A stretch of 31,452 nucleotides of DNA from a virus (taxonomy: Duplodnaviria > Heunggongvirae > Uroviricota > Caudoviricetes), in the IMG/VR virus record IMGVR_UViG_2713896902_000003, positions 1 through 31,452 of that record; one strand, written 5' to 3'. Below are positions 9,595 to 31,452 of the stretch, piece after piece. The notes below the pieces were generated by a model, which was given only the letters and a program-made list of their open reading frames with translations, had not been told where the DNA came from and did no database searches. The translations under genes were made by a program, and so were the position numbers. Position 1 is the stretch's first letter; every line of letters begins with the position of its first letter.

Positions 9595-9595
9595 C

Positions 9596-11408: not shown

Positions 11409-11412
11409 GAGC

Positions 11413-14189: not shown

Positions 14190-14217
14190 AAAAAAACGGC
14201 ACTGAGAAAGTGCCGTT
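14190..14217 (-). terminator. Reverse-strand intrinsic terminator module 1b (stem AACGGCACT/AGTGCCGTT)
   Basis: Counterpart of 1a with compensatory stem changes; A7 on the plus-strand 5' side. Confidence 0.5.
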
Positions 14218-14338
14218 AAAAAGTAACATGTATGATATATAAGGTCTTGTTAGTATTTTCTGTATTGCGATTCGTTTTCTTTGATTTCAGTCAACATTGA
14301 TGCGCAGTAATTAGTAATGGATTGAAATTTATGCAGAC

Positions 14339-14365
14339 AAAAAAAGTACCCTCCTGACGAGGGTA
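14339..14365 (-). terminator. Reverse-strand intrinsic terminator module 2b (stem GTACCCTC/GAGGGTAC, loop CTGAC)
   Basis: Counterpart of 2a; stem register shifted and loop changed but pairing kept. Confidence 0.55.
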
Positions 14366-14507
14366 CAGGTACGAAAACATGTGAAGAAGTATTTATTGCT
14401 AGTGTTATGTAGAGCTCTGAATCCTACGCGTTCTGATCTTACAAATTTCATATTTTTTTTATGTGATGCAGTTCCTGTTTTTATTTTTTTGTCGGTGATG
14501 GTCTGAT

Positions 14508-14534
14508 AAAAAGCGACCTTTTTACAGGTCGCTT
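14508..14534 (-). terminator. Reverse-strand intrinsic terminator module 3b (stem AAGCGACC/GGTCGCTT)
   Basis: Counterpart of 3a with compensatory change (gaccc...gagtc versus gacct...aggtc). Confidence 0.45.
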
Positions 14535-14647
14535 GTGAACGAAGGAAGTATATGAGTAGTAGTGTACGTACTCTATTTTACTGCTCCAGATGTGTGATGG
14601 ATGTTGATGCAGGTCAACTTTCTGTAATAAATAGTTTTTTAACAAAT

Positions 14648-14673
14648 AAAAAATGGCTCCCGAAAGAGGAGCC
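14648..14673 (-). terminator. Reverse-strand intrinsic terminator module 4b (stem GGCTCC/GGAGCC)
   Basis: Counterpart of 4a; A-rich tract on the plus-strand 5' side. Confidence 0.4.
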
Positions 14674-14942
14674 AATAATGGAAAAGCCTGGAATCTCATA
14701 TATGTAATTGTATACATCTGTATTTTATTTATCGTGTAATAGTTTGTAGTGATTTATATCAATGTTTTGATAGTATTTCTGAATGTCTGGATGCTAATTA
14801 TAATAATGCATATCGCAGGCTTATTATTATTTACGCATTAAAATAAATAGCATCCTTGATATATCATTCTGACTCTGTTGTCTGGTAGTGAGGAATTAAA
14901 ACGGGGAGGAATATACAGATATTCCTGCCTGATATTGTCAAT

Positions 14943-14964
14943 GGGCCGCTGGTGGCCCTTTTTT
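14943..14964 (+). terminator. Intrinsic terminator 18 nt upstream of the holin RBS (GGGCC-GCTGGT-GGCCC plus T6)
   Basis: Read directly: atgggccgctggtggcccttttttatttacaggagaaaaagtATG. Confidence 0.6.
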
Positions 14965-14982
14965 ATTTACAGGAGAAAAAGT

Positions 14983-15375
14983 ATGTCTGAACCCTTATCC
15001 GGTTCCGGCACGGCTGCGGCGCTGGGGGGAGCGACGGTCTTCGGGCTGTTTACCGGGACGGATTTCGGGATTGTGTTTGGTGCATTTGCGGGGGCATTGT
15101 TTGTGGCAACGGTGCCACAGGCACTTTCAGCCTGGCGTGTGGCGGCGCATTTTCTGGTGTCGTTTATCGTCGGCGTACTGGGAGCGCGCGTGCTGTCAGC
15201 ATGGGTTATATCAAAAACAGGGTATGACGCCACGTCTGTGGATGCGCTGTGTGCAGTACTGGTATCAGTGGTGTCGGTGAAGATTCTCTCGTTCATCCAC
15301 CAGCAGGATATTGCATCGCTGGTGTCCGGCCTGTTTTCCCGCCTGCGGGGCGGAGGAGGCGGTAATGTTAAATAA
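14983..15375 (+). CDS. Putative holin, 130 aa, multiple transmembrane segments
   Basis: Track ORF 14878..15375; ATG 14983 preferred (RBS AGGAG, 9-nt spacer). Gly/Ala-rich hydrophobic segments and charged C-terminus; first gene of the lysis cassette upstream of the endolysin. Confidence 0.6.
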   Translation: MSEPLSGSGTAAALGGATVFGLFTGTDFGIVFGAFAGALFVATVPQALSAWRVAAHFLVSFIVGVLGARVLSAWVISKTGYDATSVDALCAVLVSVVSVKILSFIHQQDIASLVSGLFSRLRGGGGGNVK

Positions 15376-15643
15376 CCTTCCCGGATTGCTGAATGTGGCG
15401 TTATGCACGGTTATCGTGCTGACGCTCTTTTTTTATCGTCGTCGTGATTCCAGACATAAACCGCTGATGTCATGGCTGGCCTGGCTGCTGATGCTGCTGT
15501 ATGCCTTTGCGCCACTCAGTTATCTGTGTGGCCGCCCGTTAGCAGCGAACTGGCTGGCAGTGGGGCTTAATCTGCTGTTCTGCGTGCTGGTGATACGTGC
15601 CCGCGGGAATGTTTCGAAAATCCTTGTATTACGAAGGCGCTGA
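15365..15643 (+). CDS. Second lysis-cassette membrane protein (holin or antiholin-like), about 92 aa
   Basis: Track ORF 15311..15643; ATG 15365 preferred (RBS GGAGG upstream, overlaps the holin stop); two hydrophobic helices and an Arg-rich C-terminus. Confidence 0.5.
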   Translation: MLNNLPGLLNVALCTVIVLTLFFYRRRDSRHKPLMSWLAWLLMLLYAFAPLSYLCGRPLAANWLAVGLNLLFCVLVIRARGNVSKILVLRRR

Positions 15644-15644
15644 T

Positions 15645-16190
15645 ATGAAGTCGAAAGATGAAATTTTTGACGAAATTCTGGGCAAGGAAGGCGGTTACGT
15701 CAGTCACCCGGATGATAAGGGGGGCCCGACAAAATGGGGTATTACGGAAAAAGTCGCCCGCGCTCACGGATATCAGGGCGATATGCGTGACCTGACACGC
15801 GAACAGGCACTGGAAATCCTTGAGGCGGATTACTGGTTCGGACCACGCTTTGACCAGGTGGCAACGCTGTCGCCGGATATTGCCGCAGAGCTGTGCGATA
15901 CGGGCGTCAACATGGGGCCAGCCGTGGCGTCAAAAATGCTTCAGCGCTGGCTGAATGTGTTTAATCTGCGCGGCAGGCTGTACCCGGATATGGACGCAGA
16001 CGGGCGCATCGGACCTCGTACCATCAGTGCATTGCGCGTATTCCTGAATAATCGCGGTCAGGATGGCGAACGGGTAATGCTGACAGCCCTGAACTGTACG
16101 CAGGGTGACCGCTATCTGGAGCTGGCAGAGAAGCGTGAAGCCAACGAGTCGTTTGTCTACGGCTGGATGAAAGAGCGCGTGGTGGTTTAA
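15645..16190 (+). CDS. Endolysin, GH108-type N-terminal lysozyme domain with C-terminal peptidoglycan-binding domain, about 181 aa
   Basis: Track ORF 15597..16190; ATG 15645 preferred (follows the upstream stop by 1 nt). Contains the GKEGGYVSHPDDKGGPTKWGIT signature (EGGY catalytic motif of GH108) as recalled. Confidence 0.8.
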   Translation: MKSKDEIFDEILGKEGGYVSHPDDKGGPTKWGITEKVARAHGYQGDMRDLTREQALEILEADYWFGPRFDQVATLSPDIAAELCDTGVNMGPAVASKMLQRWLNVFNLRGRLYPDMDADGRIGPRTISALRVFLNNRGQDGERVMLTALNCTQGDRYLELAEKREANESFVYGWMKERVVV

Positions 16191-16350
16191 AAACTAATAC
16201 TGAAGTGCTGAACACCCTCAACTCATGCAGGCTCTTTTCTGGAGTTACGATGAGCGAAAGTAAGGGGTATGGCATCAGATAGCAAAAACCCCGGCTGCGG
16301 TAACAGTCCGGGGATTCCTGTCTCTGGCCCTGGGTAAGGCAAAGGAGAGT

Positions 16351-16533
16351 ATGAGGAAGTATAAACTAATTCTGTTGAGGTTGACTATGAAAAACGGCCT
16401 TGAATTGAAAGCGCCTGTAACTGATGACATCAGCAGAGCGGTGGCTTTTGCCATTAAGTGGGTGGCGGTTGGTATCGCTGTATCTCCGATGCTGTATGGG
16501 CTGGCAAAACTGGTCATTGCGGTGAAATCGTAA
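16351..16533 (+). CDS. Small membrane protein, 60 aa (48 aa if ATG 16387)
   Basis: ORF with RBS AGGAG upstream; C-terminal hydrophobic helix VAVGIAVSPMLYGLAKLVIAV; function unknown. Confidence 0.4.
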   Translation: MRKYKLILLRLTMKNGLELKAPVTDDISRAVAFAIKWVAVGIAVSPMLYGLAKLVIAVKS

Positions 16534-16550
16534 GTGGGGCGGGGGTAAAT

Positions 16551-16685
16551 ATGTCAGACAGCATCGTAAAACTGGTGAGGATTCTCAGTGTGGTTGTTGG
16601 CCTTTCATTTTCAGCAATGTTGGTTGCCATTTTCATTGCTACAGCCTGGCGAGTCTTGAGCTTATCCGGATTGATTGGTGGTTAG
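16551..16685 (+). CDS. Small membrane protein, 44 aa
   Basis: Track ORF 16458..16685; ATG 16551 preferred (RBS GGGGG, 5-nt spacer, 18 nt after upstream stop); one transmembrane helix. Confidence 0.4.
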   Translation: MSDSIVKLVRILSVVVGLSFSAMLVAIFIATAWRVLSLSGLIGG

Positions 16686-16690
16686 CCGGG

Positions 16691-16909
16691 ATGAAGCGGA
16701 AGCACTGGACACACAGAATGCCTCGGGCGGCAGCGAAAAGGGCACTGGTGGCGATACTGGTGCCTTTTTTATTGGTGGGATGCGTCAGCCTGGATAAAGC
16801 GCGCCAGCTTTTCGATACAGCTTCTCAGGTCTGTGAAATTGTCGACGGTGTTCGGCAGTGTCTGCAGAACAGAATGCCTGTAAGAGCAGAATATTTTGCT
16901 GAAAAATGA
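16691..16909 (+). CDS. Putative lipoprotein (possible o-spanin-like), 72 aa (63 aa if ATG 16718)
   Basis: Signal peptide with lipobox LLVG-C; mature part has three more Cys; last small gene of the lysis cassette. Not Pro-rich, so the spanin assignment is weak. Confidence 0.4.
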   Translation: MKRKHWTHRMPRAAAKRALVAILVPFLLVGCVSLDKARQLFDTASQVCEIVDGVRQCLQNRMPVRAEYFAEK

Positions 16910-17043
16910 AGGATGCGCAGCGTCCGGAAAGCATGAAATTCTGTGTTTGTGGCTGCTCAATAAAATAAATTCTTTCTGTCGCCGCGAATACTCAAATGTT
17001 GATCAGTGCCCGGTGCGGCGACGGGCTTCGATATCAGGAGACG

Positions 17044-17184
17044 ATGATGGAAAAAACAGAAAACAAACCGATAGTAATTGGTGCTGATGCTGCTCCGTTT
17101 AAGTTTGAGTTGCCGTTGCCTGGTGGTTCAACAATCGGTCGATCCGATGATGTGCTGGTGGCTTTCCGGCCGTTGATTAAGTAG
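17044..17184 (+). CDS. Small hypothetical protein, 46 aa
   Basis: Track ORF 16996..17184; ATG 17044 preferred (RBS AGGAG, 3-nt spacer); no motif recognized. Confidence 0.3.
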   Translation: MMEKTENKPIVIGADAAPFKFELPLPGGSTIGRSDDVLVAFRPLIK

Positions 17185-17200
17185 TGTGTAGGAGGCGCAG

Positions 17201-17920
17201 GTGGCTGACAGAATTGAGCTAAAGATGGATTTTTCTTCTCAGGATATTCAACGACAACTCCGGCGCCTTGAAGAACGCGAATTGCCGTTCGCAATGGCGC
17301 TTACGGCAACCAGAACGGCAAAGGCTTCTCAGGCTGCGATTAAGGATGAAATTAATCGGGTATTTGACAGGCCCACGCCGTGGATTCAGAACTCTACTTA
17401 CGTTTTAGCCGCAAAGAAGAGTGCTCCTACAGCCATTGTGTATGCTCGTGAATGGGGGGGAACGCCAGCCCCCGTAACGTTGACTCCGCAAATCGAGGGC
17501 GGCCAACGACAGTACAAACGTTCAGAAGGGGCGCTAAGGTCTGGTGGATATTTGCCTGACGGCTGGCAGCTTGCTCCTGGTCCCGGCGCAAAGCTGGACA
17601 AATACGGGAATATTTCGCGGGGGCAACTACAGCAGGTCTTATCTGGCCTGAGAGTTCAGCGAGATGCGCATCAAAATCGCCGTCAGGGAAAGCCTACGGA
17701 GTTTTTTGTTGTTCGACCTGGTACAAGTAACCCGCTTCAACCAGGCGTCTGGCAGCGCGTTGGGCGGCGTCCTGCGTTGATCCTTACGTTTATCCAGCAA
17801 CCTAACTATTCGCAGCGTCTTGACTGGTATGGCGTGGCGCTGCGTGCTGGTGAGGATGCGTTTGCTGATGAGGTCACAAAGGCTATTGATGACATCCTTT
17901 CTAAGACGTTCTCTCGTTAA
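17201..17920 (+). CDS. Hypothetical protein, 239 aa
   Basis: GC-rich ORF with RBS GGAGG between the lysis cassette and an AT-rich non-coding region upstream of the packaging genes; no motif recognized. Confidence 0.6.
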   Translation: MADRIELKMDFSSQDIQRQLRRLEERELPFAMALTATRTAKASQAAIKDEINRVFDRPTPWIQNSTYVLAAKKSAPTAIVYAREWGGTPAPVTLTPQIEGGQRQYKRSEGALRSGGYLPDGWQLAPGPGAKLDKYGNISRGQLQQVLSGLRVQRDAHQNRRQGKPTEFFVVRPGTSNPLQPGVWQRVGRRPALILTFIQQPNYSQRLDWYGVALRAGEDAFADEVTKAIDDILSKTFSR

Positions 17921-18477
17921 TCATCGTGTGGTTGATGGTGTTGTTATGCAGGGTGTATTCACTGTGTTCTGTAGCGTCGCTCGCTGGCTGTCTGTGGGGG
18001 AGCACGAGCATCGTTTCATCGTCCGGCAGAATTGGGTCCTTCTGGCCAAAAGCGTTGGATGCGGGTCATTCGAACCCCGATGTTCGGCTAGCTAAACGTG
18101 AAAAAAGTTAGGTTAAAAGTTGCGGTAAAAGAAATTTACTCATCTTATTGAAAAATATCGGGAAAACGTGATTTTTTGCTGTATTTGTGCTGGTAAAAAG
18201 AAAGTAGAAAATTTTCTTTTAGATCATCAAGATACGCGCAGATCTTTAACCAATGTGAGGTTGTTCTGGTAAAAATCGTTATAAATCATGTAAATACATC
18301 CAATCTTTTAACCAAAACACCATCGCAAGATCCTTTTTACTTATAAAAACTTAATAAAATCAGATAATTATGCTGGTTTGTGTGATTTTTTATGAGTAAA
18401 AAGATCGTCATTTTTCTCTTTTAGTATCAATAAGTTAAACAGTTTTCTTTAACCTGTTGTGTTATGGCGGTTAAAAA

Positions 18478-19068
18478 ATGGCTCTAAAAATCGAATATTT
18501 ACCAGTCGGTAAGCTGCTCAGATACGCCAAAAATTCACGGACTCATTCAGATGAGCAAGTTGATCAGTTGGTGAACAGTATCCGTGAGTTCGGTTTCACT
18601 AATCCTGTGCTGATCGATGAAAAGAATGAACTGATTGCGGGGCATGGGCGGCTTGCAGCAGCCGAAATACTGGAAATGGATAAAGTTCCGGCGATTCGGT
18701 TGAGTAACCTTTCTGAAAAACAGAAGAAGGCTTACAGGATTGCAGATAACAAGCTGGCCTTAAATGCTGGCTGGGATATGCAGCTTCTGGCCGAAGAAGT
18801 CAAAGAGTTAATGGATGACGATTTCGATATTGATCTGCTTGGGTTTAATGATGCGGAGCTTGACGAAATGTTAAGCGATGAACAGCCGCAGGAAGAAGAC
18901 GATAATTCTTCTCCTGTTGTTCAAATTAAGTACCTGGCTATTGATAAAGAACGTATTCCCGCGACGGATATGGAAATTGCATTGTTGCTGGATGTTTATC
19001 GTCAGTACCACGACGCGCATGAAACGCATGAGGGATTTGTTCAGTATCTTGCTAATGGTTGCAAGTAA
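18478..19068 (+). CDS. ParB-like nuclease domain protein, 196 aa
   Basis: N-terminal ParB/sulfiredoxin-type motif (ELIAGHGRLAAAE); acidic C-terminus; common immediately upstream of terminase genes. Confidence 0.7.
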   Translation: MALKIEYLPVGKLLRYAKNSRTHSDEQVDQLVNSIREFGFTNPVLIDEKNELIAGHGRLAAAEILEMDKVPAIRLSNLSEKQKKAYRIADNKLALNAGWDMQLLAEEVKELMDDDFDIDLLGFNDAELDEMLSDEQPQEEDDNSSPVVQIKYLAIDKERIPATDMEIALLLDVYRQYHDAHETHEGFVQYLANGCK

Positions 19069-19628
19069 TGGCCATCGTCAGTAAGTCAGAGTTTGCTCGC
19101 CGGAAAGGTATTTCTCCGGCAATGGTTACGAAGCTCTGTCGTTCCGGTCGCATTCCAGTGCTGAAAAGCGGCAAGCTGGATTTTGATAAAGCCAGTGCGG
19201 CTTATGCAGCGAGCCGACAGGTTGGTCGTGAGGTATCTGCTGAAAATGGAAAAAGAGGGCATGGGATATCTTCGGAACAACCAGAGTTACCTGCTGATGA
19301 TGCCGGATTAGCTGGTGGTACTTCCGGTGTTGCGGTGCAATTCAACAAGGCTAAGACCGCAGAAAAAATTTATCAGGCAAAGCTGAAACGCCTTGAATTT
19401 GAAGAAAAGGAAGGCTCTCTCATCGCTAAAGATGCGGTCAGGGATGATGCATTTCTGGCAGCTAATGAATTGCGTAGCCGCTTATTTAGTATTGCTCCAA
19501 GAGCAGCTCCCCGTTGTGAAGGCAAAACAGCCAGGGAGATCGAACGCATTATTGAAGACGAGATTAACTTTGCGCTTCAGGCGCTCCAGGAATCCAGATT
19601 TATTAAGCAGGAAGAGCAGGAAAAATAA
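19068..19628 (+). CDS. Terminase small subunit (Nu1-like), about 186 aa
   Basis: Track ORF 19059..19628; ATG 19068 overlaps the ParB-like stop. N-terminal HTH (SKSEFARRKGISPAMVTKL), directly upstream of the large terminase gene. Confidence 0.7.
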   Translation: MAIVSKSEFARRKGISPAMVTKLCRSGRIPVLKSGKLDFDKASAAYAASRQVGREVSAENGKRGHGISSEQPELPADDAGLAGGTSGVAVQFNKAKTAEKIYQAKLKRLEFEEKEGSLIAKDAVRDDAFLAANELRSRLFSIAPRAAPRCEGKTAREIERIIEDEINFALQALQESRFIKQEEQEK

Positions 19629-19633
19629 ACCTC

Positions 19634-21490
19634 ATGGGCGAAACAGTCTGGAGCACCGCTTTTTTCCGTGCGCTTCGCCCTAAATCACGGCTAACTGTTT
19701 CCGAATGGGCTGATAAGTATCGCCATGTAGCGCCGGGAACGTCTCCAGAGCCGGGGCCGTGGCGTACAAGCCGGGTGCCATATTTGCGTGAGCCAATGGA
19801 TGTTATTGGTGACGCTGATACAGAAACAGTAGTGATGCAATGTAGCTCGCAAATTGGTAAATCTGAATTACAGCTAAATGTTATGGGCTACTTTGCAGAT
19901 CAGGAGCCATCTCCTCAGTTGATGATTTATCCAACGGTAGAGGCGGCTGAGGCTTTTTCAAAGGAACGTATTGATCCGACGTTCAAATATTCCCCTGGTT
20001 TGAAACACAAGCTGCATGAAGGGAAAGAGGGGCGCGGCGCAGCCAAAAAGTCCAGCACGACTATACGTATGAAGCATTACGCTGGTGGATATATAGCACT
20101 TGTTGGTGCTAATTCCCCAGCAGGTCTTGCATCCAGGCCAATTCGAATACTGTTAGCTGATGAGATTGATCGTTACGGTGTAACGCAGGAGGGCGACCCA
20201 CTAAAACTAGGTATTCAGCGTACTACCAACTTTCATAATCGTAAGAAAGTTTTTGTTTCTACTCCTGTTTTGGAGGAAACGAGCAAAATCCACAAGTGGT
20301 TTAAGCTCTCAGATCAGCGTTACTACCATGTTCCTTGCCCATGTTGTGGGGCCATGCAGGTGATGAAATGGTCGCAGGTCAGATGGGATAAGAGTGATTC
20401 AGGTGAGGCGTTACCGGAAACGGCCAGATATGAGTGCTGTGAGTGCGGCGGGATTATGCGCGGATCTGGTAAACCAGACGTTGATTGGTTGGCGAAGGGG
20501 ATATGGATAGCTGAATATCCTGGAGTTAAAGGTATTGTTGGTTTTCATATTAACAGTCTTTACTCCCCGTGGGTTGCATTGTCAGAGCTGGTTGAAGAAT
20601 TTACGGAAGCAACCAGAAACCGTGATAAAAATGGATTAATGGAGTTTATTAACCTTAAGCTGGGTGAGCCATGGAAAGAGGATGCTAAGGACGATATCGA
20701 TCCTGAATACTTGTTGCAACGCAGAATAAGGTTTGAAGAGTTTTTACCAGATGATGTTTTATTGTTAAGTGCTGGTGTTGATGTACAGGACACATATTTA
20801 GTTTGTGAATTGGTCGGTTGGGGAAAAGGTAAGGAATCATGGGGGATAGAATATAAAATATTTCCGGGCGATCCCGCACAAGATGTTGTCTGGAAACAAC
20901 TTGATGAATACCTACTCCGTAGCTGGTCATTCCGTGACGGTCGAAAATTACAGATTTCTTCCGTTTGTATTGACTCTGGTGGGCATTTTACAACAGAGGT
21001 ATATCGATTTACTAAGCCGCGGGAATCAAGGCGAATATACTCTATCAGAGGTCGTGGTGGGGTAGGTTTACCATTTATAGGAAAGCCAGGTAATAATAAC
21101 CGTGTGGGTGCTATGTTGTTTAATTTGGGGGTTGATGATGGTAAAGGGACCATCATGGCACGAATTAAGATACATGATCCTGGTCCTGGTTATATGCATT
21201 TTCCATTAGATTCTGACAGAGGATATGATACCGAATACTTTAAAGGGCTATTATCTGAGAAAAAAATATTTGAATATAAAAATGGTCAGACAAAAGAAAA
21301 GTGGGTGAAAGTCTACGAGCGTAACGAGCCTCTTGATTGCCGTAACTATGCAACTGCTGCGATGGAAATTCTGAACCCTAATTTTAACTGGCTTGCCGAA
21401 CAGGAAATGCGAGGTAATGTGTATGTGCAGAACTCGTCAGGTATACGTAGAAGACGCCGTAGAGTTATAAGTAAAGGCGTAACCATATAG
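19634..21490 (+). CDS. Terminase large subunit (lambda gpA-like), 618 aa
   Basis: Size, position and N-terminal region (WADKYRHVAPGTSPEPGPWRTSRVPYLREPMD; Walker A-like SSQIGKSE) consistent with the gpA family. Confidence 0.85.
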   Translation: MGETVWSTAFFRALRPKSRLTVSEWADKYRHVAPGTSPEPGPWRTSRVPYLREPMDVIGDADTETVVMQCSSQIGKSELQLNVMGYFADQEPSPQLMIYPTVEAAEAFSKERIDPTFKYSPGLKHKLHEGKEGRGAAKKSSTTIRMKHYAGGYIALVGANSPAGLASRPIRILLADEIDRYGVTQEGDPLKLGIQRTTNFHNRKKVFVSTPVLEETSKIHKWFKLSDQRYYHVPCPCCGAMQVMKWSQVRWDKSDSGEALPETARYECCECGGIMRGSGKPDVDWLAKGIWIAEYPGVKGIVGFHINSLYSPWVALSELVEEFTEATRNRDKNGLMEFINLKLGEPWKEDAKDDIDPEYLLQRRIRFEEFLPDDVLLLSAGVDVQDTYLVCELVGWGKGKESWGIEYKIFPGDPAQDVVWKQLDEYLLRSWSFRDGRKLQISSVCIDSGGHFTTEVYRFTKPRESRRIYSIRGRGGVGLPFIGKPGNNNRVGAMLFNLGVDDGKGTIMARIKIHDPGPGYMHFPLDSDRGYDTEYFKGLLSEKKIFEYKNGQTKEKWVKVYERNEPLDCRNYATAAMEILNPNFNWLAEQEMRGNVYVQNSSGIRRRRRRVISKGVTI

Positions 21491-21501
21491 AGGAAATATA
21501 A

Positions 21502-21741
21502 ATGAACAATGAAGCATTTTCTCTGACTGAAGCCAGAGAGATGTTATCTGTCTGGCGGGAAGCATATCGCGCTATTGCTATTGGCGGTCAGTCATATAAA
21601 TTTGGCACGCGGCAGTTAACTCGTGCGGATTTGTCAGAAGTCAGAAAAGAGATGGATTACTGGCGTAATGAAGTAGAAAGATTATCAGCAGGTATACGCC
21701 GAGGCCCACGAATTAAACGAGTGGTGATAAGAGATTTATGA
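21502..21741 (+). CDS. Head-tail joining protein, gpW-like, 79 aa
   Basis: Small ORF between terminase and portal, as in lambda; RBS AGAGGA. Confidence 0.55.
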   Translation: MNNEAFSLTEAREMLSVWREAYRAIAIGGQSYKFGTRQLTRADLSEVRKEMDYWRNEVERLSAGIRRGPRIKRVVIRDL

Positions 21742-23312
21742 ATATTCTTGATCGAGTTATTGCGCCGTTTTCACCTCAGAGGGCATTAAATCGAGCTTTG
21801 GCAAGAAAACGGTTAGAAACACTTGAAAGTATTAATAACCTTGGATATTCACGTCATGGTGCAAGCACTCATAAAAAATCATTAAGGGGTTGGTTTAGTA
21901 AAGCTGGTTCTCCTGATGATGATATTGTTAAAAATATAGATAAATTGCGTGAGCGTTCTCGTGATCTCTTCATGGGAAACCCGCTATCGGTTGGCGCAAT
22001 AAAAACTATCAGGACAAACGTTGTTGGCTCCGGTTTAAAACTAAATGCGAACATTGATGCCGATTTTTTGGGGATGACGCAGGAAGAAGCGCGAGCATGG
22101 GAAAAACATGTTGAGCGTGAGTTTAGATTATGGGCTGATTCTCCAGATTGTGATGCATCAAGAATGTGTACTTTTGGACAATTGCAATCATTGGTCCAGA
22201 TATCTGCGTTAACATCTGGCGATATATTTGCTGCGCTACCAGTTATTAAGCGAAAGGGTGTTATCTATGATTTATGCGTCTATTTAATTGAAGGTGATCG
22301 TGTTTGTAATCCAGAGGATCGTTTTATACCAAATCTTTACGGTGGCGTAGAGGTTGGTGAATTTAGCGAGCCTGTGGCGTACTGGGTTGCAAAACATCAC
22401 CCAGCTGGGACTTCTGGTTTTGTAACCCGCAAGTGGGAACGTATTCCCGCATATGGGAGTAAAACAGGAAGAAGAAATATTCTGCATGTCATGCAGGATT
22501 TTGAAAGGCCTGGGCAACGTCGTGGCGTTCCTGTCCTTGCTCCTGTAATTGAAGCATTGAAGCAGTTAGGACGATACACCGATGCTGAATTGGTTGCTGC
22601 GGTTGTGTCAGGGATGTTTACAGTTTTTATTAAAACAGACGCGCCTGATGGACCAGTAGGCGGATCGGGTATCCCTCAGTACGAGCAGATCGATAATCAT
22701 GATGATAACACCCAGGAAATGGGGAATGGCTCCATAGTAAGTTTGGGCGAAGGTGAGTCGATAGATACAGCAAATCCCGGGCGACCAAATACGGCATTTG
22801 ATGGTTTTGTTGTCGCCATATGCCGTCAAATTGGGGCGGCTTTAGAACTCCCTTACGAACTCTTGGTAAAACATTTTACAGCAAGTTATAGCGCGAGTAG
22901 GGCCGCATTACTTGAGGCCTGGAAAATGTTCCGTATGCGACGTGACTGGATGGTTCAGTCATTCTGTCAACCGATCTATGAGGAATGGTTGGCCGAAGCT
23001 GTTGCCAAAGGTCGTGTTATTGCTCCTGGTTTTTTTTATGGTCCTGAATATCGCGCGGCATGGAGTGGCGCCCAATGGTATGGGCCATCACAAGGCCAAT
23101 TAGACCCTCTTAAAGAGGTTAAAGCTGCAAAAATGCGTGTTGAAGAAACATTCTCTACCCGTGAAAAAGAAGCGGCTGAAATGTCAGGTCTTAACTGGGA
23201 AGAAACCGCACAAATTTGTGGCAGGGAGGAGAGAGCTCGCCGTGAATTGGGGCTGATTACGCCTCCTGTTTCTGAGGTAAATGAACAAAATATGGAGACA
23301 GATGATGCCTGA
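21738..23312 (+). CDS. Portal protein (lambda gpB-like), 524 aa
   Basis: Size and position after terminase and gpW, before the prohead protease. Confidence 0.8.
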   Translation: MNILDRVIAPFSPQRALNRALARKRLETLESINNLGYSRHGASTHKKSLRGWFSKAGSPDDDIVKNIDKLRERSRDLFMGNPLSVGAIKTIRTNVVGSGLKLNANIDADFLGMTQEEARAWEKHVEREFRLWADSPDCDASRMCTFGQLQSLVQISALTSGDIFAALPVIKRKGVIYDLCVYLIEGDRVCNPEDRFIPNLYGGVEVGEFSEPVAYWVAKHHPAGTSGFVTRKWERIPAYGSKTGRRNILHVMQDFERPGQRRGVPVLAPVIEALKQLGRYTDAELVAAVVSGMFTVFIKTDAPDGPVGGSGIPQYEQIDNHDDNTQEMGNGSIVSLGEGESIDTANPGRPNTAFDGFVVAICRQIGAALELPYELLVKHFTASYSASRAALLEAWKMFRMRRDWMVQSFCQPIYEEWLAEAVAKGRVIAPGFFYGPEYRAAWSGAQWYGPSQGQLDPLKEVKAAKMRVEETFSTREKEAAEMSGLNWEETAQICGREERARRELGLITPPVSEVNEQNMETDDA

Positions 23313-24369
23313 TTGGTGGGAAATAAAAAATAGCACGGGTGAAGATGACTCTCCGGCTGAACTTTTAATTTACGGATATATTGGTGAATTTGATGAGGTT
23401 TCTTCTTCTGATATAGTGAATAAGCTAAAGGATATTTCATCAAATACTATCAACGTAAAAATTAATAGTTATGGCGGTTCTGTTTTTACTGCTCAAGCTA
23501 TTCTTTCATCATTAAAGCGCCATAAGGCAAATATTACTGTTTATATTGACGGTATTGCTGCATCTGCTGCAACTATTATTGCAATGGCGGGTGATAAAAT
23601 TATTATCCCATCTAATGCTATGATGATGATCCATAATCCGTGGACATGGGCAATGGGGGATGCGGATGAATTGCGTGATATTGCTGAGATGATGGATAAA
23701 ATACGAAACAGTATTTTATCTGCATATAAGGAGAAAACAGGGCTTTCTGAAGATAAGTTAATTGAACTGATGGATCAGGAAACCTGGCTAAATGCAGAAG
23801 AAGCTGTTGAGCTTGGGTTTGCTGACGAGGTTGAAAAACCAATACGGCTATCTGCTTCCATAAAGGAAGGGATGCTTTCGCTCAATGGAATAACTTTTGA
23901 AGCATCAAGGTTTTCAAAATTACCTGATTCGCTCGCAAAGCTGCCGCAAAATAAAAATGAATTATCTACTGAATCAAATGAACAAAATGAGGATGATGTT
24001 GTGACTCTTGATGAATTAAAAAATAAACATCCAGAATTATACAATCAGGTTTTTAATGCTGGTAAAGATGAGGGCGTTAAATCAGAACGCGAGCGCATTG
24101 AAACAATTGAGAATAGCGTGATTCCAGGTCATGACGACCTGGTTAAGAATGCAAAATTCAAAACGGGAGTTTCTGCTGCTGAACTTGCTTTGGAAATTAT
24201 GAATGCAGAGCGAGCGCGTAACAAAAACTTTCTTAATCAACGGCAAGAAGACGCAAATGAGGTGAATGATTCAGTTGATGTTAATCAACCAGAAAACAAC
24301 GGCAACAAACAGGCTGAAGCAGTAAAAAATATTATTGGGTCAGTATTTAAAAACCGCGATAAAAATTAA
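23281..24369 (+). CDS. Prohead protease, ClpP/S49-like, with C-terminal scaffold-like region, 362 aa
   Basis: ClpP-like segment SYGGSVFTAQAI...IDGIAASAATIIAMAGDKIIIPSNAMMMIHNPW; charged, coiled-coil-like C-terminal half. Confidence 0.75.
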   Translation: MNKIWRQMMPDWWEIKNSTGEDDSPAELLIYGYIGEFDEVSSSDIVNKLKDISSNTINVKINSYGGSVFTAQAILSSLKRHKANITVYIDGIAASAATIIAMAGDKIIIPSNAMMMIHNPWTWAMGDADELRDIAEMMDKIRNSILSAYKEKTGLSEDKLIELMDQETWLNAEEAVELGFADEVEKPIRLSASIKEGMLSLNGITFEASRFSKLPDSLAKLPQNKNELSTESNEQNEDDVVTLDELKNKHPELYNQVFNAGKDEGVKSERERIETIENSVIPGHDDLVKNAKFKTGVSAAELALEIMNAERARNKNFLNQRQEDANEVNDSVDVNQPENNGNKQAEAVKNIIGSVFKNRDKN

Positions 24370-24378
24370 GGTGAGTTT

Positions 24379-24762
24379 ATGCGAGAGTCTTTTTCATTTG
24401 AACCAGATAATCTGATTATTTCTGGTGGTATGCCAGCAATTCCAACAAGTATTAAACTTGCCAGCGGTAAAGTAAAACGGGGTGAGTTACTTGCTTTTGT
24501 CAGTATTGATCAGACAACAAATGTTGTCACTGTGGCGCCAATAAACCTCTCTGGTGAAGGGGAGGCAAAAGAACCGTATTGTATCGCTCAACACAGTATT
24601 GATGCGACTGATTCAGCGCAAGTCGGGACAGCATGGTTGACCGGAATGTTCAATGCACATGCGGTTATCCTTCCTGAATCAGCAAAGGTTGCCGATGTAT
24701 ATTTAGCTTGCCGGAAGGTTGGGATATTCCTTAATACCGCACAACAAAATCCATCTGCATAA
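24379..24762 (+). CDS. Head decoration protein candidate (gpD-like), 127 aa
   Basis: Small ORF between protease and major capsid gene, the lambda D position. Confidence 0.5.
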   Translation: MRESFSFEPDNLIISGGMPAIPTSIKLASGKVKRGELLAFVSIDQTTNVVTVAPINLSGEGEAKEPYCIAQHSIDATDSAQVGTAWLTGMFNAHAVILPESAKVADVYLACRKVGIFLNTAQQNPSA

Positions 24763-24781
24763 TATAAAGAGGTAATATTTT

Positions 24782-25819
24782 ATGGTTGATATTTTTGAAC
24801 GACGTACAATGCTTGAGCCTGTTATTCAGAATTTCAAGGCTCGTCGTTTTCTTCTCCGTACTTTTTTTCCTGGTATTCAGACCTTTAATTCAAAGAAAGT
24901 TGATCTGGATTTTGTTCGCGGTGGCCGTACTATGGCTCCATTTGTTGGTAAACGTTTTGGCTCTAAAACCGTTGAGCGACGCGGCTTTGTAACGAGAACG
25001 CTGGAGCCACCACTGATTGCGCCTGATTTGGTAACAACGGCAGAGCTTCTTTTAAACAGGCTTCCTGGGGAAACTATTTACAATGCGAAATCGCCCGCAG
25101 AACGAGCTGCCGAGCAATTAGGCAAGGATTTGCTTGAGCTTGATGAAATGGTTAACCGCCGTGAAGAATGGATGTGTGCACAGGTCTTGTTTACGGGGCA
25201 GGTTGATATTGTTGGTGAAGGAGTGGATGACACAGTTTATTTTTGGCCTGAAGAGGAAGGAGATAAACCATATCTTGAACTGACAGGTGATGATTTATGG
25301 AGTGCAGCAAAATCAGATCCGTTGGTCAATGTTCGCAACTGGAAACGTCGTGTATCACTAACTTCAGGTTTTACTCCTCGTGTTGCCGTAATGGGGGCAA
25401 AAGTTGTTGATGCATTCGTTAAAAATGAAGCTGTAAGTAAATATCTTGATAATCGCCGAAAAGAGTTTGGGTATATTAAGCCAGAGGACTTAGAAGAAGG
25501 CGTAACTCATTATGGTAATGTTGAGGGACTCGATTTTTATGGTTACGACGAGCTTATTCTCAGTGATAAAACAGGAAAGCCAGAACCATTAGTACCGGAA
25601 GATAAGATTCTCCTTGGCTCTCCGGGGCGGGGAACGATGCTGTATGGTGCTGTAGAGCTTGTAGATGACGCCGAAAAGACCCTAACGATTGTTGAGTCAC
25701 CACGAGTTCCAGACACCTGGGTAACTCGTAAGCCGGCTGGCCGTTATGTTGCCATGAAGTCATCTCCACTGCCTAATCCTGGTGTGGCTGATGCCTATCT
25801 GGTGGCTAAGGTGGTTTAA
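24782..25819 (+). CDS. Major capsid protein (lambda gpE-like), 345 aa
   Basis: Length and position; N-terminal FLLRTFF motif parallels FLRLFF of lambda gpE as recalled. Confidence 0.8.
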   Translation: MVDIFERRTMLEPVIQNFKARRFLLRTFFPGIQTFNSKKVDLDFVRGGRTMAPFVGKRFGSKTVERRGFVTRTLEPPLIAPDLVTTAELLLNRLPGETIYNAKSPAERAAEQLGKDLLELDEMVNRREEWMCAQVLFTGQVDIVGEGVDDTVYFWPEEEGDKPYLELTGDDLWSAAKSDPLVNVRNWKRRVSLTSGFTPRVAVMGAKVVDAFVKNEAVSKYLDNRRKEFGYIKPEDLEEGVTHYGNVEGLDFYGYDELILSDKTGKPEPLVPEDKILLGSPGRGTMLYGAVELVDDAEKTLTIVESPRVPDTWVTRKPAGRYVAMKSSPLPNPGVADAYLVAKVV

Positions 25820-26212
25820 ATGGCCAGACTGATTAAAAATATTGATACGATAAGCCACGGCTCGCTAAAAGCGGGCCGTTTGCTTAATGGGCTAATGGAT
25901 AACTCCAGGATTGCCGAACTGATTGCGTCAGGACATGCTATTGCCACCGAAGAGGATGGTGATTTGGCATCGGCTGGGGGCTATGATGCTGCTAAGTTAG
26001 CTTTTGAGCATGGATACGCATCTGCTGTTAATGATGCTGTGGACGCGGGGTTGATTACGCGAACGGAGGCGGGTAGCTGTGTATTCGAGGTTGAGTTTGA
26101 GGATGATGGCGGCAATGAGGAAACAGTTGCTGATGATTCATCTGAATCTGTAGCTACTTCTGATGCCAGTAATGCGAAAAAATCAACGCAAAAAAAAGGT
26201 AATAAGAAGTAA
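25820..26212 (+). CDS. Hypothetical head-associated protein with acidic C-terminus, 130 aa
   Basis: ORF from track directly after the capsid gene. Confidence 0.5.
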   Translation: MARLIKNIDTISHGSLKAGRLLNGLMDNSRIAELIASGHAIATEEDGDLASAGGYDAAKLAFEHGYASAVNDAVDAGLITRTEAGSCVFEVEFEDDGGNEETVADDSSESVATSDASNAKKSTQKKGNKK

Positions 26213-26556
26213 TGAACTCCTTCAAAGAGGTTATAGCGCAAGATATTTCTGCAATATTCCTCAATGAAAAAGAGTTTGCCGATACATATAACATAGACGG
26301 CAAGGATATCCTTGCCGTTATTGATACAGACCTTATTCATGAGCGGAATAAACGTTCATATGCTGAGTTTGCAGAGGGAATAAATCAGGGGCAAATAATA
26401 TTATTTGTTTCAAGAAAAGATTTTCCTGTTCTCCCTGTCAAAGACCAGTCAATGAAAATCAACGGTAAAAATTATATTGTTGATGAAGTGTCAGATAATG
26501 TTGGTGTATTGGAAATAACTCTTACTATTAATACTAACAGAGGAATGCCAATTTGA
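26212..26556 (+). CDS. Head-tail connector/adaptor protein candidate, 114 aa
   Basis: Position between head and tail modules; overlapping start and stop with neighbours. Confidence 0.45.
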   Translation: MNSFKEVIAQDISAIFLNEKEFADTYNIDGKDILAVIDTDLIHERNKRSYAEFAEGINQGQIILFVSRKDFPVLPVKDQSMKINGKNYIVDEVSDNVGVLEITLTINTNRGMPI

Positions 26557-27038
26557 TTAATCTTTTGATAGATGCAATAAAAAATCGGTTGGAACATGAG
26601 GTTTTCCATGATTTATTAGTGCAGGGACCTCCTTATGATGAAACAGATAGTGATATTAAATTGCTTGTTCCAACAATATTTAAAGGGTACTTGCCTCCTA
26701 AATCACAACCATCTCCAGATAAACCGCATGAATTTCCTCATGTGATTATCAGGCCAACGGAAGGAGGAACGCAGCCTGAAACGGATGAAGTTAAGGTTAA
26801 GTTTCTTCTAGGTGGTTTTTGTGAAGACCATACTGGGTATGAATGGGTAATGGCTCTTCTTGAAAGGATGATGTTTAATTTTCAGGAGAAGCCTTTACTT
26901 GAAGAGAAATTTCTCTTTCAGGGTGATATCAGGTGGCGAATGTTTGATGATCAACCATATCCATATTGGATAACGGAAGCAACTGGAACGTGGCTGGTAT
27001 TAAAACCTCAGAATATTCAGTCTCAGGAGTTTATATAA
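26553..27038 (+). CDS. Tail completion or tail terminator protein candidate, 161 aa
   Basis: Position directly upstream of the sheath gene, as Mu gpK. Confidence 0.4.
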   Translation: MINLLIDAIKNRLEHEVFHDLLVQGPPYDETDSDIKLLVPTIFKGYLPPKSQPSPDKPHEFPHVIIRPTEGGTQPETDEVKVKFLLGGFCEDHTGYEWVMALLERMMFNFQEKPLLEEKFLFQGDIRWRMFDDQPYPYWITEATGTWLVLKPQNIQSQEFI

Positions 27039-27329
27039 ATGGCTAATAAGAAAATTAGTAAAGAAGATACAGACAAGAAGGAAAATGTTGATCAAACATT
27101 TGTGTATATAGGCCCAACAATCCCTCAAATCTCACTTTTGAAGCATAAACTATTTAAGAATGGTTTATCTCCAGAGTGTGAAAAATTAATTTCATGTATT
27201 CCTGGTGCAAAGTGTTTGTTTGTTGCAACCAGTGATTTTGCAGATGCAGAAAAAAGACTTTCTGATAAAACCAGCGTTGAGTATGTAATGTACTCTCGAG
27301 TTTCTTCTTCTGTTATGGAGATTAAATAA
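27039..27329 (+). CDS. Hypothetical protein, 96 aa
   Basis: ORF from track; stop overlaps the sheath start. Confidence 0.45.
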   Translation: MANKKISKEDTDKKENVDQTFVYIGPTIPQISLLKHKLFKNGLSPECEKLISCIPGAKCLFVATSDFADAEKRLSDKTSVEYVMYSRVSSSVMEIK

Positions 27330-28792
27330 TGGGATATCGCCACGGTATTTATATATCTGAGCTGGCTACATCTATAACTCCTCCAGTGCAAGTTAGTGCC
27401 GGGTTGATTGTTGCATTTGGTACGGCTCCTGTTAATCAGTTAGAAGACCCAGCATCAGCAGTAAATAAGCCTGTCATTGCGTATACCTACGCAGAGGCTG
27501 TATCTAAAATAGGATATAGCACAAATTTCGAGAAATATACTTTAAGTGAAGTAATTAAAGTAGCATTTGGAATATATGGTGTTGCACCAGTTGTATTTAT
27601 CAATGTGCTTGATCCGACAAAACATAAGAAAGACGTTAATGATGAGGTCGTGAAACTTTCTGGCGGGAAAGGCACCCTCTCTAATGACGGCGTCTTATAT
27701 AAATCTGTTGTTGTGAAAAAAGCAGATGGCGATTCGCCAGGGTTAACGGTTGATACAGATTATGTGCTGGCGCTAGATGATAATGGCTATACGGTCATTA
27801 CCGCTATTAGCGGAGGAAAAATTACTGAAAAAGACGCCACTCTTAAGGTTAGTTATACGCATCTTGATCCCGGGGCTGTAACTAAAAACGATATTATTGG
27901 TGGTGTGGATTCCAACACTAAAGCGAATACGGGGCTTGAGTTACTGTCGGATGTTTATCCCCGCTTCAAACTAGTTCCAGGACAAGTGATTGCTCCTGGA
28001 TTTAGTTCTGATAGTGAAGTTGGTCAGCTAATGGCGGCTAAAGCTGCGCTGATTAGTGAATTGTTCAAAGCAGAAGCTATCACCGATGCGCCGACTGATA
28101 AATCTACTATCAGTGATTATTCTGCTGTTCCTGAATGGAAGCAGAACAATAATCATATGGCAGCTAACCAGACAGTGTGCTGGCCGATGGTAAAACTTGG
28201 CGATAATATTTACCATCACTCAACCCATTTAGCGGCAGCAACATGTTTGCTGGATAGTCAGAATGGAGATATCCCATCACGTTCGCCGTCAAATATAAAA
28301 CTACAGATGGACGGCGCTGTACGTAAAGATGGCAGTGAAGTATGGATTAATATTAGCCAGGCAAACTACTTGAATGGACAGGGGATCGTAACAAGCCTTA
28401 ATTTTGATGGCTGGAAATCATGGGGAAACCGTAATGCTATTTATCCAACATCTACGGATCCCAAAGACACATTTCGTGTTTGCCGACGTATGTTTAACTG
28501 GGTGGGTAATACGTTAATTCTTTCGCATTGGTCAAAAATAGACAATCCTGCAAATCGTCGATTAATTGAATCTATTGTTACAAGCGCGAATATTTGGTTT
28601 AACGGCCTCACAGGTAATCAGGATATTGCAGGTGGTGTTGTTACCTTTGATCAGTCTGAAAACACGATTACGTCATTGATGGACGGGATTGTTAAATTCC
28701 ATGTGAAAATGACACCATTCTCACCTGCCAGAGATATAGAGTTCGTCATGGAATATAATCCTGATTATCTGCTGAACTTGTTTTCTGAATAA
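27329..28792 (+). CDS. Contractile tail sheath protein, 487 aa
   Basis: N-terminus (YRHGIYISE...NKPVIAYTYAEAVSKIG) parallels the P2 FI/Mu L sheath N-terminus as recalled; followed by tube, chaperone and tape-measure genes. Confidence 0.8.
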   Translation: MGYRHGIYISELATSITPPVQVSAGLIVAFGTAPVNQLEDPASAVNKPVIAYTYAEAVSKIGYSTNFEKYTLSEVIKVAFGIYGVAPVVFINVLDPTKHKKDVNDEVVKLSGGKGTLSNDGVLYKSVVVKKADGDSPGLTVDTDYVLALDDNGYTVITAISGGKITEKDATLKVSYTHLDPGAVTKNDIIGGVDSNTKANTGLELLSDVYPRFKLVPGQVIAPGFSSDSEVGQLMAAKAALISELFKAEAITDAPTDKSTISDYSAVPEWKQNNNHMAANQTVCWPMVKLGDNIYHHSTHLAAATCLLDSQNGDIPSRSPSNIKLQMDGAVRKDGSEVWINISQANYLNGQGIVTSLNFDGWKSWGNRNAIYPTSTDPKDTFRVCRRMFNWVGNTLILSHWSKIDNPANRRLIESIVTSANIWFNGLTGNQDIAGGVVTFDQSENTITSLMDGIVKFHVKMTPFSPARDIEFVMEYNPDYLLNLFSE

Positions 28793-28808
28793 ATAATAGG
28801 AGGTTGCT

Positions 28809-29330
28809 TTGAGCAATCAAATTCCTGAGAGACTTATTAACTTTACAGTATACGGTGAGGGAAACCGTATTATCGGTGTTGCTGACGCAAAGCTGCCATC
28901 AATTGAGATGATGACAGAAACAGTCAGTGGTGCAGGTATTGCTGGAGAGCTTGAGAGCGGAACGCTGGGGCATTTCAAACCAATGACTGTCTCTCTTAAA
29001 TGGCGAACCCTGACCCCTGCTGGTACAAAATTATTTCTATCCTCATCGCATCAGGTAGATTTTCGTGGTAGCCAACAGGTTTATGATGCCGGAACAGGAA
29101 AATATAAAACGGTTCCTGTTCGGGCTTCAATGAAGCTAAACCCTAAAAAACTGGATTTAGGCTCGCTACAGGTAGCAAAGGCTACTGATTCAGAGAATGA
29201 ATTTGAAGTTCTCTATATCAAATTATTTATTGATGGAAAAGAAGTCCTGGAACTTGATAAGTTGAACTTTATTTGTATCTTTGACGGTGAAGATATATTA
29301 AAAAGCGTTCGTGATGATTTAGGTTTATAA
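28809..29330 (+). CDS. Tail tube protein, 173 aa
   Basis: Size and position immediately after the sheath gene; RBS AGGAGG. Confidence 0.75.
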   Translation: MSNQIPERLINFTVYGEGNRIIGVADAKLPSIEMMTETVSGAGIAGELESGTLGHFKPMTVSLKWRTLTPAGTKLFLSSSHQVDFRGSQQVYDAGTGKYKTVPVRASMKLNPKKLDLGSLQVAKATDSENEFEVLYIKLFIDGKEVLELDKLNFICIFDGEDILKSVRDDLGL

Positions 29331-29339
29331 GGTGACGAA

Positions 29340-29621
29340 ATGGAAACTGTTAAATTAAGTAAAGAATATCGTTTTGAAGACTTTGAACCAGTAACTGAAC
29401 TTAACCTCGATTTAGACTGCTTAAAAGGCAGTGATATTTTAGAGGTATCGGACCTGCTGCAATCTCAGGGGCATGTTTCAGTTCAGACATCACTTGATCA
29501 TAAAGTCCATGTTGCTCTGGCTGCCCGTTGTATTGGCCGTCCGATAGAGTATCTGAATGGATTGCCAGCGAAAGACTTTGTTAAAGTTTGCCAAAAGGTA
29601 CAGAGTTTTTTGCTCTCGTAG
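29340..29621 (+). CDS. Tail assembly chaperone (P2 gpE / lambda gpG analogue), 93 aa
   Basis: Small acidic ORF between tube and tape-measure genes, ending just after a TTTTTTG slippery heptamer. Confidence 0.75.
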   Translation: METVKLSKEYRFEDFEPVTELNLDLDCLKGSDILEVSDLLQSQGHVSVQTSLDHKVHVALAARCIGRPIEYLNGLPAKDFVKVCQKVQSFLLS

Positions 29622-29770
29622 GTTTTGATGAAAAAAAACCTATAGATAAGCAAATAATGAGGGCTGCGAGTTCTCTGTCTCAATCAGCTCAATCAACACC
29701 TGTATCCTACTGGCTGTCGCTTCGGTTGAGGCGAATCGTCGCATGGATTGACGTGTTTAATGAGGATTAA
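29340..29770 (+). CDS. Frameshift-extended tail assembly chaperone (E+E' or GT-like), -1 slip at 29606-29612
   Basis: Heptamer T-TTT-TTG is in X-XXY-YYZ register in the zero frame; a -1 shift continues into the overlapping frame of track ORF 29588..29770, which ends 6 nt before the tape-measure start. Confidence 0.65.
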
Positions 29771-29775
29771 TACTA

Positions 29776-31452
29776 ATGGCCAGCAATAAAAACTTTAAGC
29801 TGGCTTTTGAAATTGGCGGCAAAGTTGCCGCCTCTCTCCCCAAAAGTTTTACTACAGCTAATCAGGCTGTTGCTAAATTAAATGCTGAACTGGCTGGATT
29901 AACGAAAGAACATGGGGAAATTCAAAAGCTACAATCTGTAAAAGTAAAGGTTGGACAGACCGCCCTGGAATATCATAAAGCTGCCGCTCGCGTTGAAGAG
30001 TTACAGAGGCAAATAAAAAACACGGCCAATCCAGCCAGAGCGATGCTTCGTGACTTTGAGAAGGCAAAAACACATTCATCGAATTTACGTGCATCACTAC
30101 GTTCCCAGCGTGAAGAACTGGCCGCTTTAAAGTCTGCTTATCAGGGCGCTGATACATCTGCCAGAGCGTTGGCCTCAAGAGAGAAAGAGCTTAAAGCCAG
30201 CATTGATCGTAATCGTGAGGCTCAGGCCCGTAGCGTTGAGCAGGTTAACCGCTACAGAACGGCTTTGGCTTTAGCCAGAGCAAATGTTCAGCAAGTGAAA
30301 AAGCAGCAGGAGGAACTTAACCGGGCATTAGAAAAACAACGTATTGATAAAATTAACAGCTATAAAAAAGCGCTGGCTGAAGCACGGAAAAATGTTCTTG
30401 CAGTAAAACGGGCTCAGGAGGAGTTAAACCGCGCGCTGGAAAGGCAACGCGAATTAAAACGAGAGCGTCTTGGTGAGGCGAAGAGCCAACTTGTAAGGAC
30501 CGGGTTACAAACTGGTGCTGTTGCGGCTGGTGCATTTGCGGCTGCTAATAATGCGGCAAATTTCAATCGTGAAAACAAGAGGATTGGTTTTACGGCAGAC
30601 ATGAAGCCGGAAGAGGTTCAGGCGATGGGACGAGCAATGCTTGTTACCGGGACGGCTACCAACCAGTTTGCATCTGATATTCAGGCCGCTCAGGGTTTTC
30701 TCGTTGCTGCCGGGCAGGATTATAAAGAGGCTCAGGCGAATCTGCTGACTATTGGGCGAACGGCTACAGCTACTGGCTCTGATATCCTCGATGTCTCGAA
30801 GGCATCATTTACATTAAGTGACTCATTGAAGATTGATCCATCTCAAATGAAGTCTGCAATGGGAATTCTGGTTCAGGCAGGGAAAGAGGGGAACTTTGAA
30901 TTTAAAGATATGGCCAAAAATCTTCCTGTGCTTGGTGCTCAGTTCCGGGCATTAAAAATGGGAGGTAAAGAAGCCGCCGCGACGATGGGGGCAGCTTTGC
31001 AGATAGCTCGCAAAGGTGCTGCAAATTCGGATGAGGCTGCTAATAATATGAACAACTTTTTGGCGAAAATACTTTCCCCTGAAACACTAAAAAAAGCAAA
31101 GAAAAATTTTGGTGTAGATTTATATAAAATTGTCACAACAGCGCAGAAAAAAGGGAAGAATCCATTCGAAGCGGCCATGCATTCTGTCATGAAAATGACC
31201 AGGAGCGGAGATCAGAAGTTACTTGGTGAACTATTTGGCGATATGCAGGTTCAGAGCTTTGTTCGTCCGATGATTCAGAACTGGCAGGAATACCAGAGAA
31301 TCAAAGCAACATCTCTTGGAGCTGGAAGTGCCGTTATTGACCGCGATTTTGCCAGCATAACAAAAGACAATGCGGAGCGATTGAAACAATTACGTATTCA
31401 GGCCAGCAATGCATCATTAAGTTTTGGTCAGGCCTTTGAAGTGGCACACTGA
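29776..31452 (+). CDS. Tail tape measure protein, 558 aa (ORF ends at the window edge; may be only the first part of a longer or split gene)
   Basis: Position after the frameshifted chaperone; long Ala/Lys/Gln/Arg-rich helical sequence with repeated segments (QEELNRALEKQR..., QEELNRALERQR...). Confidence 0.75.
   Translation: MASNKNFKLAFEIGGKVAASLPKSFTTANQAVAKLNAELAGLTKEHGEIQKLQSVKVKVGQTALEYHKAAARVEELQRQIKNTANPARAMLRDFEKAKTHSSNLRASLRSQREELAALKSAYQGADTSARALASREKELKASIDRNREAQARSVEQVNRYRTALALARANVQQVKKQQEELNRALEKQRIDKINSYKKALAEARKNVLAVKRAQEELNRALERQRELKRERLGEAKSQLVRTGLQTGAVAAGAFAAANNAANFNRENKRIGFTADMKPEEVQAMGRAMLVTGTATNQFASDIQAAQGFLVAAGQDYKEAQANLLTIGRTATATGSDILDVSKASFTLSDSLKIDPSQMKSAMGILVQAGKEGNFEFKDMAKNLPVLGAQFRALKMGGKEAAATMGAALQIARKGAANSDEAANNMNNFLAKILSPETLKKAKKNFGVDLYKIVTTAQKKGKNPFEAAMHSVMKMTRSGDQKLLGELFGDMQVQSFVRPMIQNWQEYQRIKATSLGAGSAVIDRDFASITKDNAERLKQLRIQASNASLSFGQAFEVAH

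Follow-up and report, generated by a model that had tools for sequence, protein, structure and literature searches.

A contractile-tailed Escherichia albertii prophage with a tape-measure gene very probably interrupted by an IS911-like insertion sequence

The tape-measure gene and its intact relatives

Inactivation of prophage genes by insertion sequences (IS) is an already known and familiar phenomenon, and prophages inactivated in this way have been described among the defective ones of E. coli O157 Sakai. The locus described here resembles those prophages in that a lambdoid prophage that otherwise looks intact very probably carries an IS within one of its late structural genes, and it differs from them in the species (E. 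albertii), in the IS (IS911-like) and in the target gene, which codes for the tail tape measure. In tape measures of the lambda gpH type, internal in-frame deletions shorten the tail, and the ends of the protein are needed to start tail assembly. Among contractile-tailed phages, T4 gp29 has about 590 aa and P2 gpT about 815 aa, so the idea that myovirus tape measures are usually longer than 558 aa, put forward when the gene was noticed, is only loosely true; it is by comparison with the gene's own close relatives, at 930 aa, that we judge the open reading frame (ORF) short.

We found about 20 collinear relatives, and all of them carry a tape measure of 930 aa. They are E. albertii prophages, E. 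coli plasmids of ~48 kb and Yersinia and Escherichia phages, and comprise two annotated phages, in both of whose records the tape-measure CDS measures 2793 nt (930 aa), the loci L008 and L009, six E. albertii contigs (the complete chromosome CP117606.1 among them) and ten further places. Intact proteins are represented by ENL7331983.1 (the E. albertii allele, L008) and that of CP117606.1, by the protein of the ATCC 25922 plasmid (NZ_CP009073.1), and by WOZ55870.1 and URE76657.1 of phages vB_YpM_41 and vB_EcoM-473R2. At the DNA level, the window (the whole stretch of 31,452 nucleotides that we analyzed) is, from position 28800 to its end, 95.2-95.5% identical to three Yersinia phages (vB_YpM_39/41/44) and two Escherichia phages, and the same part matches 71 complete E. 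coli genomes, with 76 of 76 places on plasmids, mostly of ~48 kb. Downstream of the 930-aa tape measure, the relatives have a block of genes that in the phages reads, in order, a 72-aa tail protein X, a gpD-like hub, V, a gpU-like protein, W/gp25, J, I and a tail fibre.

Queried against a database, the 930-aa protein falls into a well-populated family. Close homologues have 930 aa, with one cluster of this length containing 1315 members, and others range from 894 to 940 aa. The more distant homologues measure 814-835 aa; Salmonella is their main source, and a few are from Citrobacter, Klebsiella, Hafnia and Yersinia. Most of the shorter entries are marked 'partial' by their source. The search returned no native full-length homologue of about 558 aa; the sole cluster of that length (P0090) is a Salmonella entry that is marked 'partial' and aligns elsewhere on the query. 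The 558-aa protein of the window is a truncated member of this family. Scanning species-representative genomes with the 930-aa protein gave two distant relatives only, in Flavobacterium and Ramlibacter metagenome-assembled genomes (MAGs). Among the intact relatives (L009, L008, L017, L001), the C-terminal 377 residues are far more divergent than the 553 before them: when L009 is compared with L017 or L001, 38-40 positions differ in the former part and 9-14 in the latter. Such uneven divergence suggests, from the sequences compared, either recombination within the tape-measure gene or differing constraints on its two parts.

The original prediction of a 558-aa tape-measure ORF that ends at the window edge is borne out by our analysis (Table 1). 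The ORF scores 76.8 bits against the Pfam family PF10145 (PhageMin_Tail; cut-off 33.2), and the domain lies at identical coordinates in the intact 930-aa protein P0001. The genes for the tail tube and the tail assembly chaperone lie directly upstream of the ORF. The chaperone scores 25.3 bits against PF10109 (cut-off 25), and chaperones protein-identical to that of the window precede the 930-aa tape-measure genes of L008 and L009. This is the order of the P2 genes FII - E/E+E' - T. The likeness to P2 extends to the PF10109 chaperone and to a T_TTT_TTG heptamer with a predicted -1 extension before the tape-measure start, a kind of slippery site that P2 uses as well. A -1 shift modelled at the heptamer gives a 143-aa fusion ending at 29770, and the same site and the same fusion length are found in L001, L008, L017 and L021, which include E. 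albertii, E. coli and Yersinia-phage relatives; the chaperone gene is predicted to undergo -1 frameshifting. Past the tape measure, the single block from X to the fibre gene in the relatives departs from the P2 arrangement.

Table 1. Coordinates of the tail-region features in the window
Feature	Position	Strand	Description
Tail tube gene	28809-29330		Pfam PF04985
Tail assembly chaperone gene	29340..29621	+	P2 gpE-like, 93 aa; Pfam PF10109 (Phage_TAC_7), E 1.6e-5
T_TTT_TTG slippery heptamer	29606..29612	+	Read from sequence; predicted -1 frameshift, E+E'-like chaperone
Predicted -1 frame chaperone extension (E'-like)	29612..29770	+	Within ORF 29588..29770; ends 5 nt before the tape-measure start codon
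Tape-measure ORF	29776..31452	+	ATG start, 558 codons; TGA at 31450-31452, the last three bases of the window
PhageMin_Tail domain (PF10145)	30643..31239	+	aa 290-488 of the 558-aa ORF
Native tape-measure part	29776..31436	+	Codons 1-553 and the first 2 nt of codon 554 of the 930-codon gene
Tip of the IS left terminal inverted repeat	31437..31452	+	16 nt, TGAAGTGGCACACTGA; last base of codon 554, codons 555-558 and TGA

That the stop codon coincides with the window edge is a product of trimming at gene boundaries, which affected both ends, as position 1 of the window is a stop codon too, that of a 376-aa integrase ORF on the minus strand. Internal tandem repeats were considered as a source of length change and rejected, since the only one found is a trivial repeat of 15 nt and 2.2 copies. 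The 558-codon ORF is genuine tape-measure sequence up to 31436 and is not a complete short tape measure: a full-length protein would be collinear with its relatives, carry their hydrophobic C-terminal part and be followed by baseplate and hub genes, and the window's copy leaves them at residue 553 of 930.

The breakpoint and the insertion sequence

The native part of the gene aligns without gaps to the 2793-nt genes of the relatives, with 2 mismatches in 1661 nt against L009 (99.88%), 5 against L008 (99.70%) and, ungapped, 71-72 against vB_YpM_41 and vB_EcoM-473R2. Over the last 16 nt of the ORF, 12-13 positions mismatch, which is what random sequence gives. Homology to all relatives ends at 31436, or in BLAST at 31434 where a mismatch adjoins the end. 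In the protein, residues 1-553 are collinear with the intact lineage (nucleotide identity 95.7-99.9%) and differ from it by one to three amino acids in the two closest alleles and by 15 in the phages, and the sheath, tube and chaperone genes upstream are alike. Residues 554-558 read FEVAH in the window and LQPAL in the relatives, where 372 more residues follow. The window copy thus differs from the intact lineage in lacking residues 554-930, in ending with five IS-encoded residues, and in that the X/D/V/U/W/J/I genes are absent from the visible sequence after it.

A look-up of the exact 558-aa product led to its source contig, BBVM01000006.1 of E. albertii (GCA_001514725.1, 247,119 bp), which runs 72 nt past the tape-measure stop codon and then ends, that is, 88 nt into the IS. 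The same product is found on three contigs, Logan assemblies included, is listed in RefSeq as WP_237762369.1 [Escherichia albertii], and falls into a 90% cluster of three members, the other two being 930-aa proteins. From window position 31437 onward the contig reads TGAAGTGGCACACTGAATTTGGCCACCTGAACAGAGGTGATATGCTCACCTCAGAACAACACAGGTGCTCCAATGAAAAAAAGAAATT; past the window it continues TGAAGTGGCACACTGAATTTGGCCACC...ATGAAAAAAAGAAAT, with the start of an ORF beginning MKKRN. The 16-mer that ends the tape-measure ORF occurs once in the window, at 31437, with no second copy elsewhere in it that would mark another IS end and hint at an inversion.

These 88 nt are 100% identical to E. coli loci annotated 'IS3 family transposase', which occur in 4021 of 5426 genomes and in up to 24 places per genome, and they match the curated 'insertion sequence:IS911A' of E. 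coli K-12 (NC_000913.3 270206-270540) at 81 of 88 positions. The two elements share the first base, the TGAAGTGG terminus and the spacing to an orfA beginning MKKRN, which starts 72 nt into the element in the same direction as the tape-measure gene (the K-12 insN ORF begins MKKRNFSAEFKRESAQ); they differ by seven mismatches in the first 88 nt, so that the window element may be a variant or a sister element. One and the same T of TGAAGTGG forms the boundary of the element in four contexts unrelated to each other, namely the tape-measure gene of the window, a GDP-mannose dehydratase pseudogene (gmd), a hypothetical gene and the perR side in K-12. The terminal repeat starts 5'-TG and its boundary is reproduced between independent insertions, as expected of an IS3-family element, and the likeness to IS911 holds over the first 88 nt, the part visible. 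On these sequence comparisons, we identify the 88 nt as the left end of an IS911-like element of the IS3 family, which may be IS911 or a close relative of it (92% to K-12 IS911A). Of the E. coli copies that match the 88 nt at 100%, those we examined (L004 2001-3270, L005 2501-3556 and L016 1707-3691) are remnants, broken by IS30 after about 330 nt, as is IS911A::IS30A in the CP4-6 prophage of K-12.

The breakpoint, the identity of the IS, the 930-aa norm and the near-identical uninterrupted alleles are demonstrated, and they make us highly confident that a contractile-tailed E. albertii prophage has had its tape-measure gene interrupted by an IS911-like element. The IS would have entered after nucleotide 1661 of the 930-codon gene (1661/1662, window 31436/31437), with its left inverted repeat facing the tape-measure gene and its orfA co-directional with it. 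Translation would then enter the IS for 16 nt, replace Leu-Gln-Pro-Ala-Leu by Phe-Glu-Val-Ala-His and stop at a TGA in the terminal repeat. Short-read assemblers typically break contigs at multi-copy repeats, and the IS, being such a repeat, explains why the draft contig stops after 88 nt of its sequence; a few foreign codons at the end of an ORF that runs to a contig or window edge typically betray a repeat element at an assembly break. Hence, of what was originally predicted, the proposal that the ORF is the N-terminal part of a longer gene stands (codons 1-553 of 930), with an IS insertion in place of the split or frameshift suggested as its cause, and the option of a complete short version is refuted by an ORF end made of IS sequence and by close homologues of 930 aa. 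Downstream of 31452, where a continuation of the gene was to be sought, the 72 nt available are IS sequence with no in-frame or shifted continuation; neither the baseplate genes nor the homologues of similar length that would have spoken for a complete short gene were encountered.

Consequences of the interruption and alternative explanations

The truncated product would retain the N-terminal coiled-coil region and the PF10145 domain. It would lack 377 residues at the C-terminus; in intact relatives, this part comprises the hydrophobic helices (three long stretches, about aa 555-640), a threefold repeat (about aa 683-790) and the C-terminal end. A tape measure without its C-terminal end should not nucleate tube assembly, and tail formation should therefore be abolished; by analogy with tape measures such as lambda gpH, we infer that the prophage is unable to build tails and hence defective. 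The other visible late genes match the lengths of their intact relatives (345, 130, 114, 161, 96, 487, 173 and 93 aa) and the N-terminal part of the tape measure is 99.9% identical to an intact allele, so the insertion looks recent.

A simple insertion, with codons 554-930 and the baseplate genes lying beyond the IS, is probable as far as the sequence can tell. The IS might instead mark a deletion or rearrangement, with codons 554-930 gone or elsewhere together with part or all of the baseplate and fibre genes and the prophage a truncated remnant, which we regard as unlikely, though with appreciable weight. It would fit the absence of a C-terminal fragment from the three-member 90% cluster of the 558-aa protein; it would also fit the abundance of the IS, since recombination is favoured by many copies (up to 24 places per E. 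coli genome). Residues 554-930, used as a protein query, gave nine matches with no close short one among them; this search missed the identical P0001 (100%) and the ~94% identical P0002 as well and is therefore uninformative. Ten guessed C-terminal ORFs, five start codons each for the L009 and L008 sequences, had no exact match in the collection, a look-up that required both the exact sequence and the exact start. The downstream proteins W (P0172) and X (P0127) were not seen in the source assembly among the places listed, which are a part of the total, as one look-up had 13 of 21 contigs grouped as 'similar' and the other covered 24 of 393 blocks. All these negatives are weak, and the intact state of the remaining late operon and the near-identity of the N-terminal part to an intact allele suggest a recent event and argue for simple insertion.

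That the junction is an assembly artefact, with IS reads wrongly joined at the contig end and the tape-measure gene intact in the strain, is very improbable. The junction does lie 88 nt from the end of a draft contig and the IS is a high-copy repeat; yet the first base of the IS terminal repeat is precisely where the break lies, the same base as in three other unrelated insertions. Transposition should leave such an exact boundary, and a random chimera should not. Moreover, the exact 558-aa product, comprising the junction and 16 nt of the IS, is present on three contigs, including Logan assemblies made independently of the NCBI assembly, and real repeat boundaries normally show up as contigs that run briefly into a repeat and then stop.

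We give hardly any credence to the notion that the 558-aa tape measure is kept in use, whether as a ruler for shorter tail-like particles or in a dominant-negative role against related superinfecting or co-resident phages. Nothing supports it; were the truncated product in use, the IS insertion would be a step in prophage domestication. The reading of the ORF as a naturally short but complete tape measure, one that would set a shorter tail, is practically out of the question: 558 aa lies inside the range of some myovirus tape measures and the ORF has a proper start and stop, but the collinear relatives uniformly have the longer protein, the final 16 nt with the stop codon belong to the IS, and the X and D genes, present after the tape measure in every relative, do not follow; the only cluster of this length is the 'partial' entry already described. 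Equally negligible is a programmed frameshift or read-through by which a full-length product would still be made from downstream sequence. The -1 frameshifting predicted 170 nt upstream, in the chaperone gene, speaks for it, but after the stop codon all frames hold IS sequence with the IS orfA among it, and the relatives read through the breakpoint in one frame with no shift.

The lambdoid contractile-tailed prophage beside ompW is, on our analysis, probably defective for tail assembly. Its product WP_237762369.1, annotated in RefSeq as 'phage tail tape measure protein', is better read as the product of an IS-truncated pseudogene and is unsuited to comparisons of tape-measure length with tail length. 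Beyond correct annotation, the significance is slight. A literature search on tape measures and insertion sequences returned nothing specific.

Mosaic structure of the prophage

The window is a mosaic. No tRNA genes were found anywhere in it. Its left ~17 kb (1-17100) are lambdoid, at 87-91% to Stx-converting and other lambdoid phages, and encode an integrase beside the chromosomal ompW, Exc, an exonuclease VIII-like protein, DicB, YdaT, RusA and a Q-like antiterminator. The right ~14 kb (17100-31436) carry a ParB-like nuclease, the terminase, and head and contractile-tail genes, with matches of 95-98% to a module that, in complete E. coli genomes, is confined to ~48-kb plasmids (76 places, none of them chromosomal); in E. 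albertii it is chromosomal, for example in CP117606.1. The head genes are lambda-type, with a GpA_ATPase terminase, Phage_portal_2, a ClpP-type protease (CLP_protease) and Phage_cap_E. Membership in the P2 family (Peduoviridae-type) was considered and rejected in view of these head genes and the lambdoid early region; matches to that family are limited to individual tail components (FII, GpU, Tail_P2_I and Phage_tail_X).

In the left part, Rfam models above their gathering scores delineate an immunity set of the P1/P7 type, with c4-a1b1 targets at 11436-11489, isrK at 11449-11526 and the C4 antisense RNA at 11552-11636. A 195-aa ORF (11690-12277) follows the C4 RNA and may, by its position, encode an antirepressor. 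Next to it, ~2.6 kb (12300-14880) are free of ORFs of at least 90 aa and are AT-rich (GC 0.35-0.42, against 0.47-0.57 on the flanks). The Q/antirepressor region borders this segment on one side; on the other are hydrophobic ORFs (14878-15643) that may be lysis genes.
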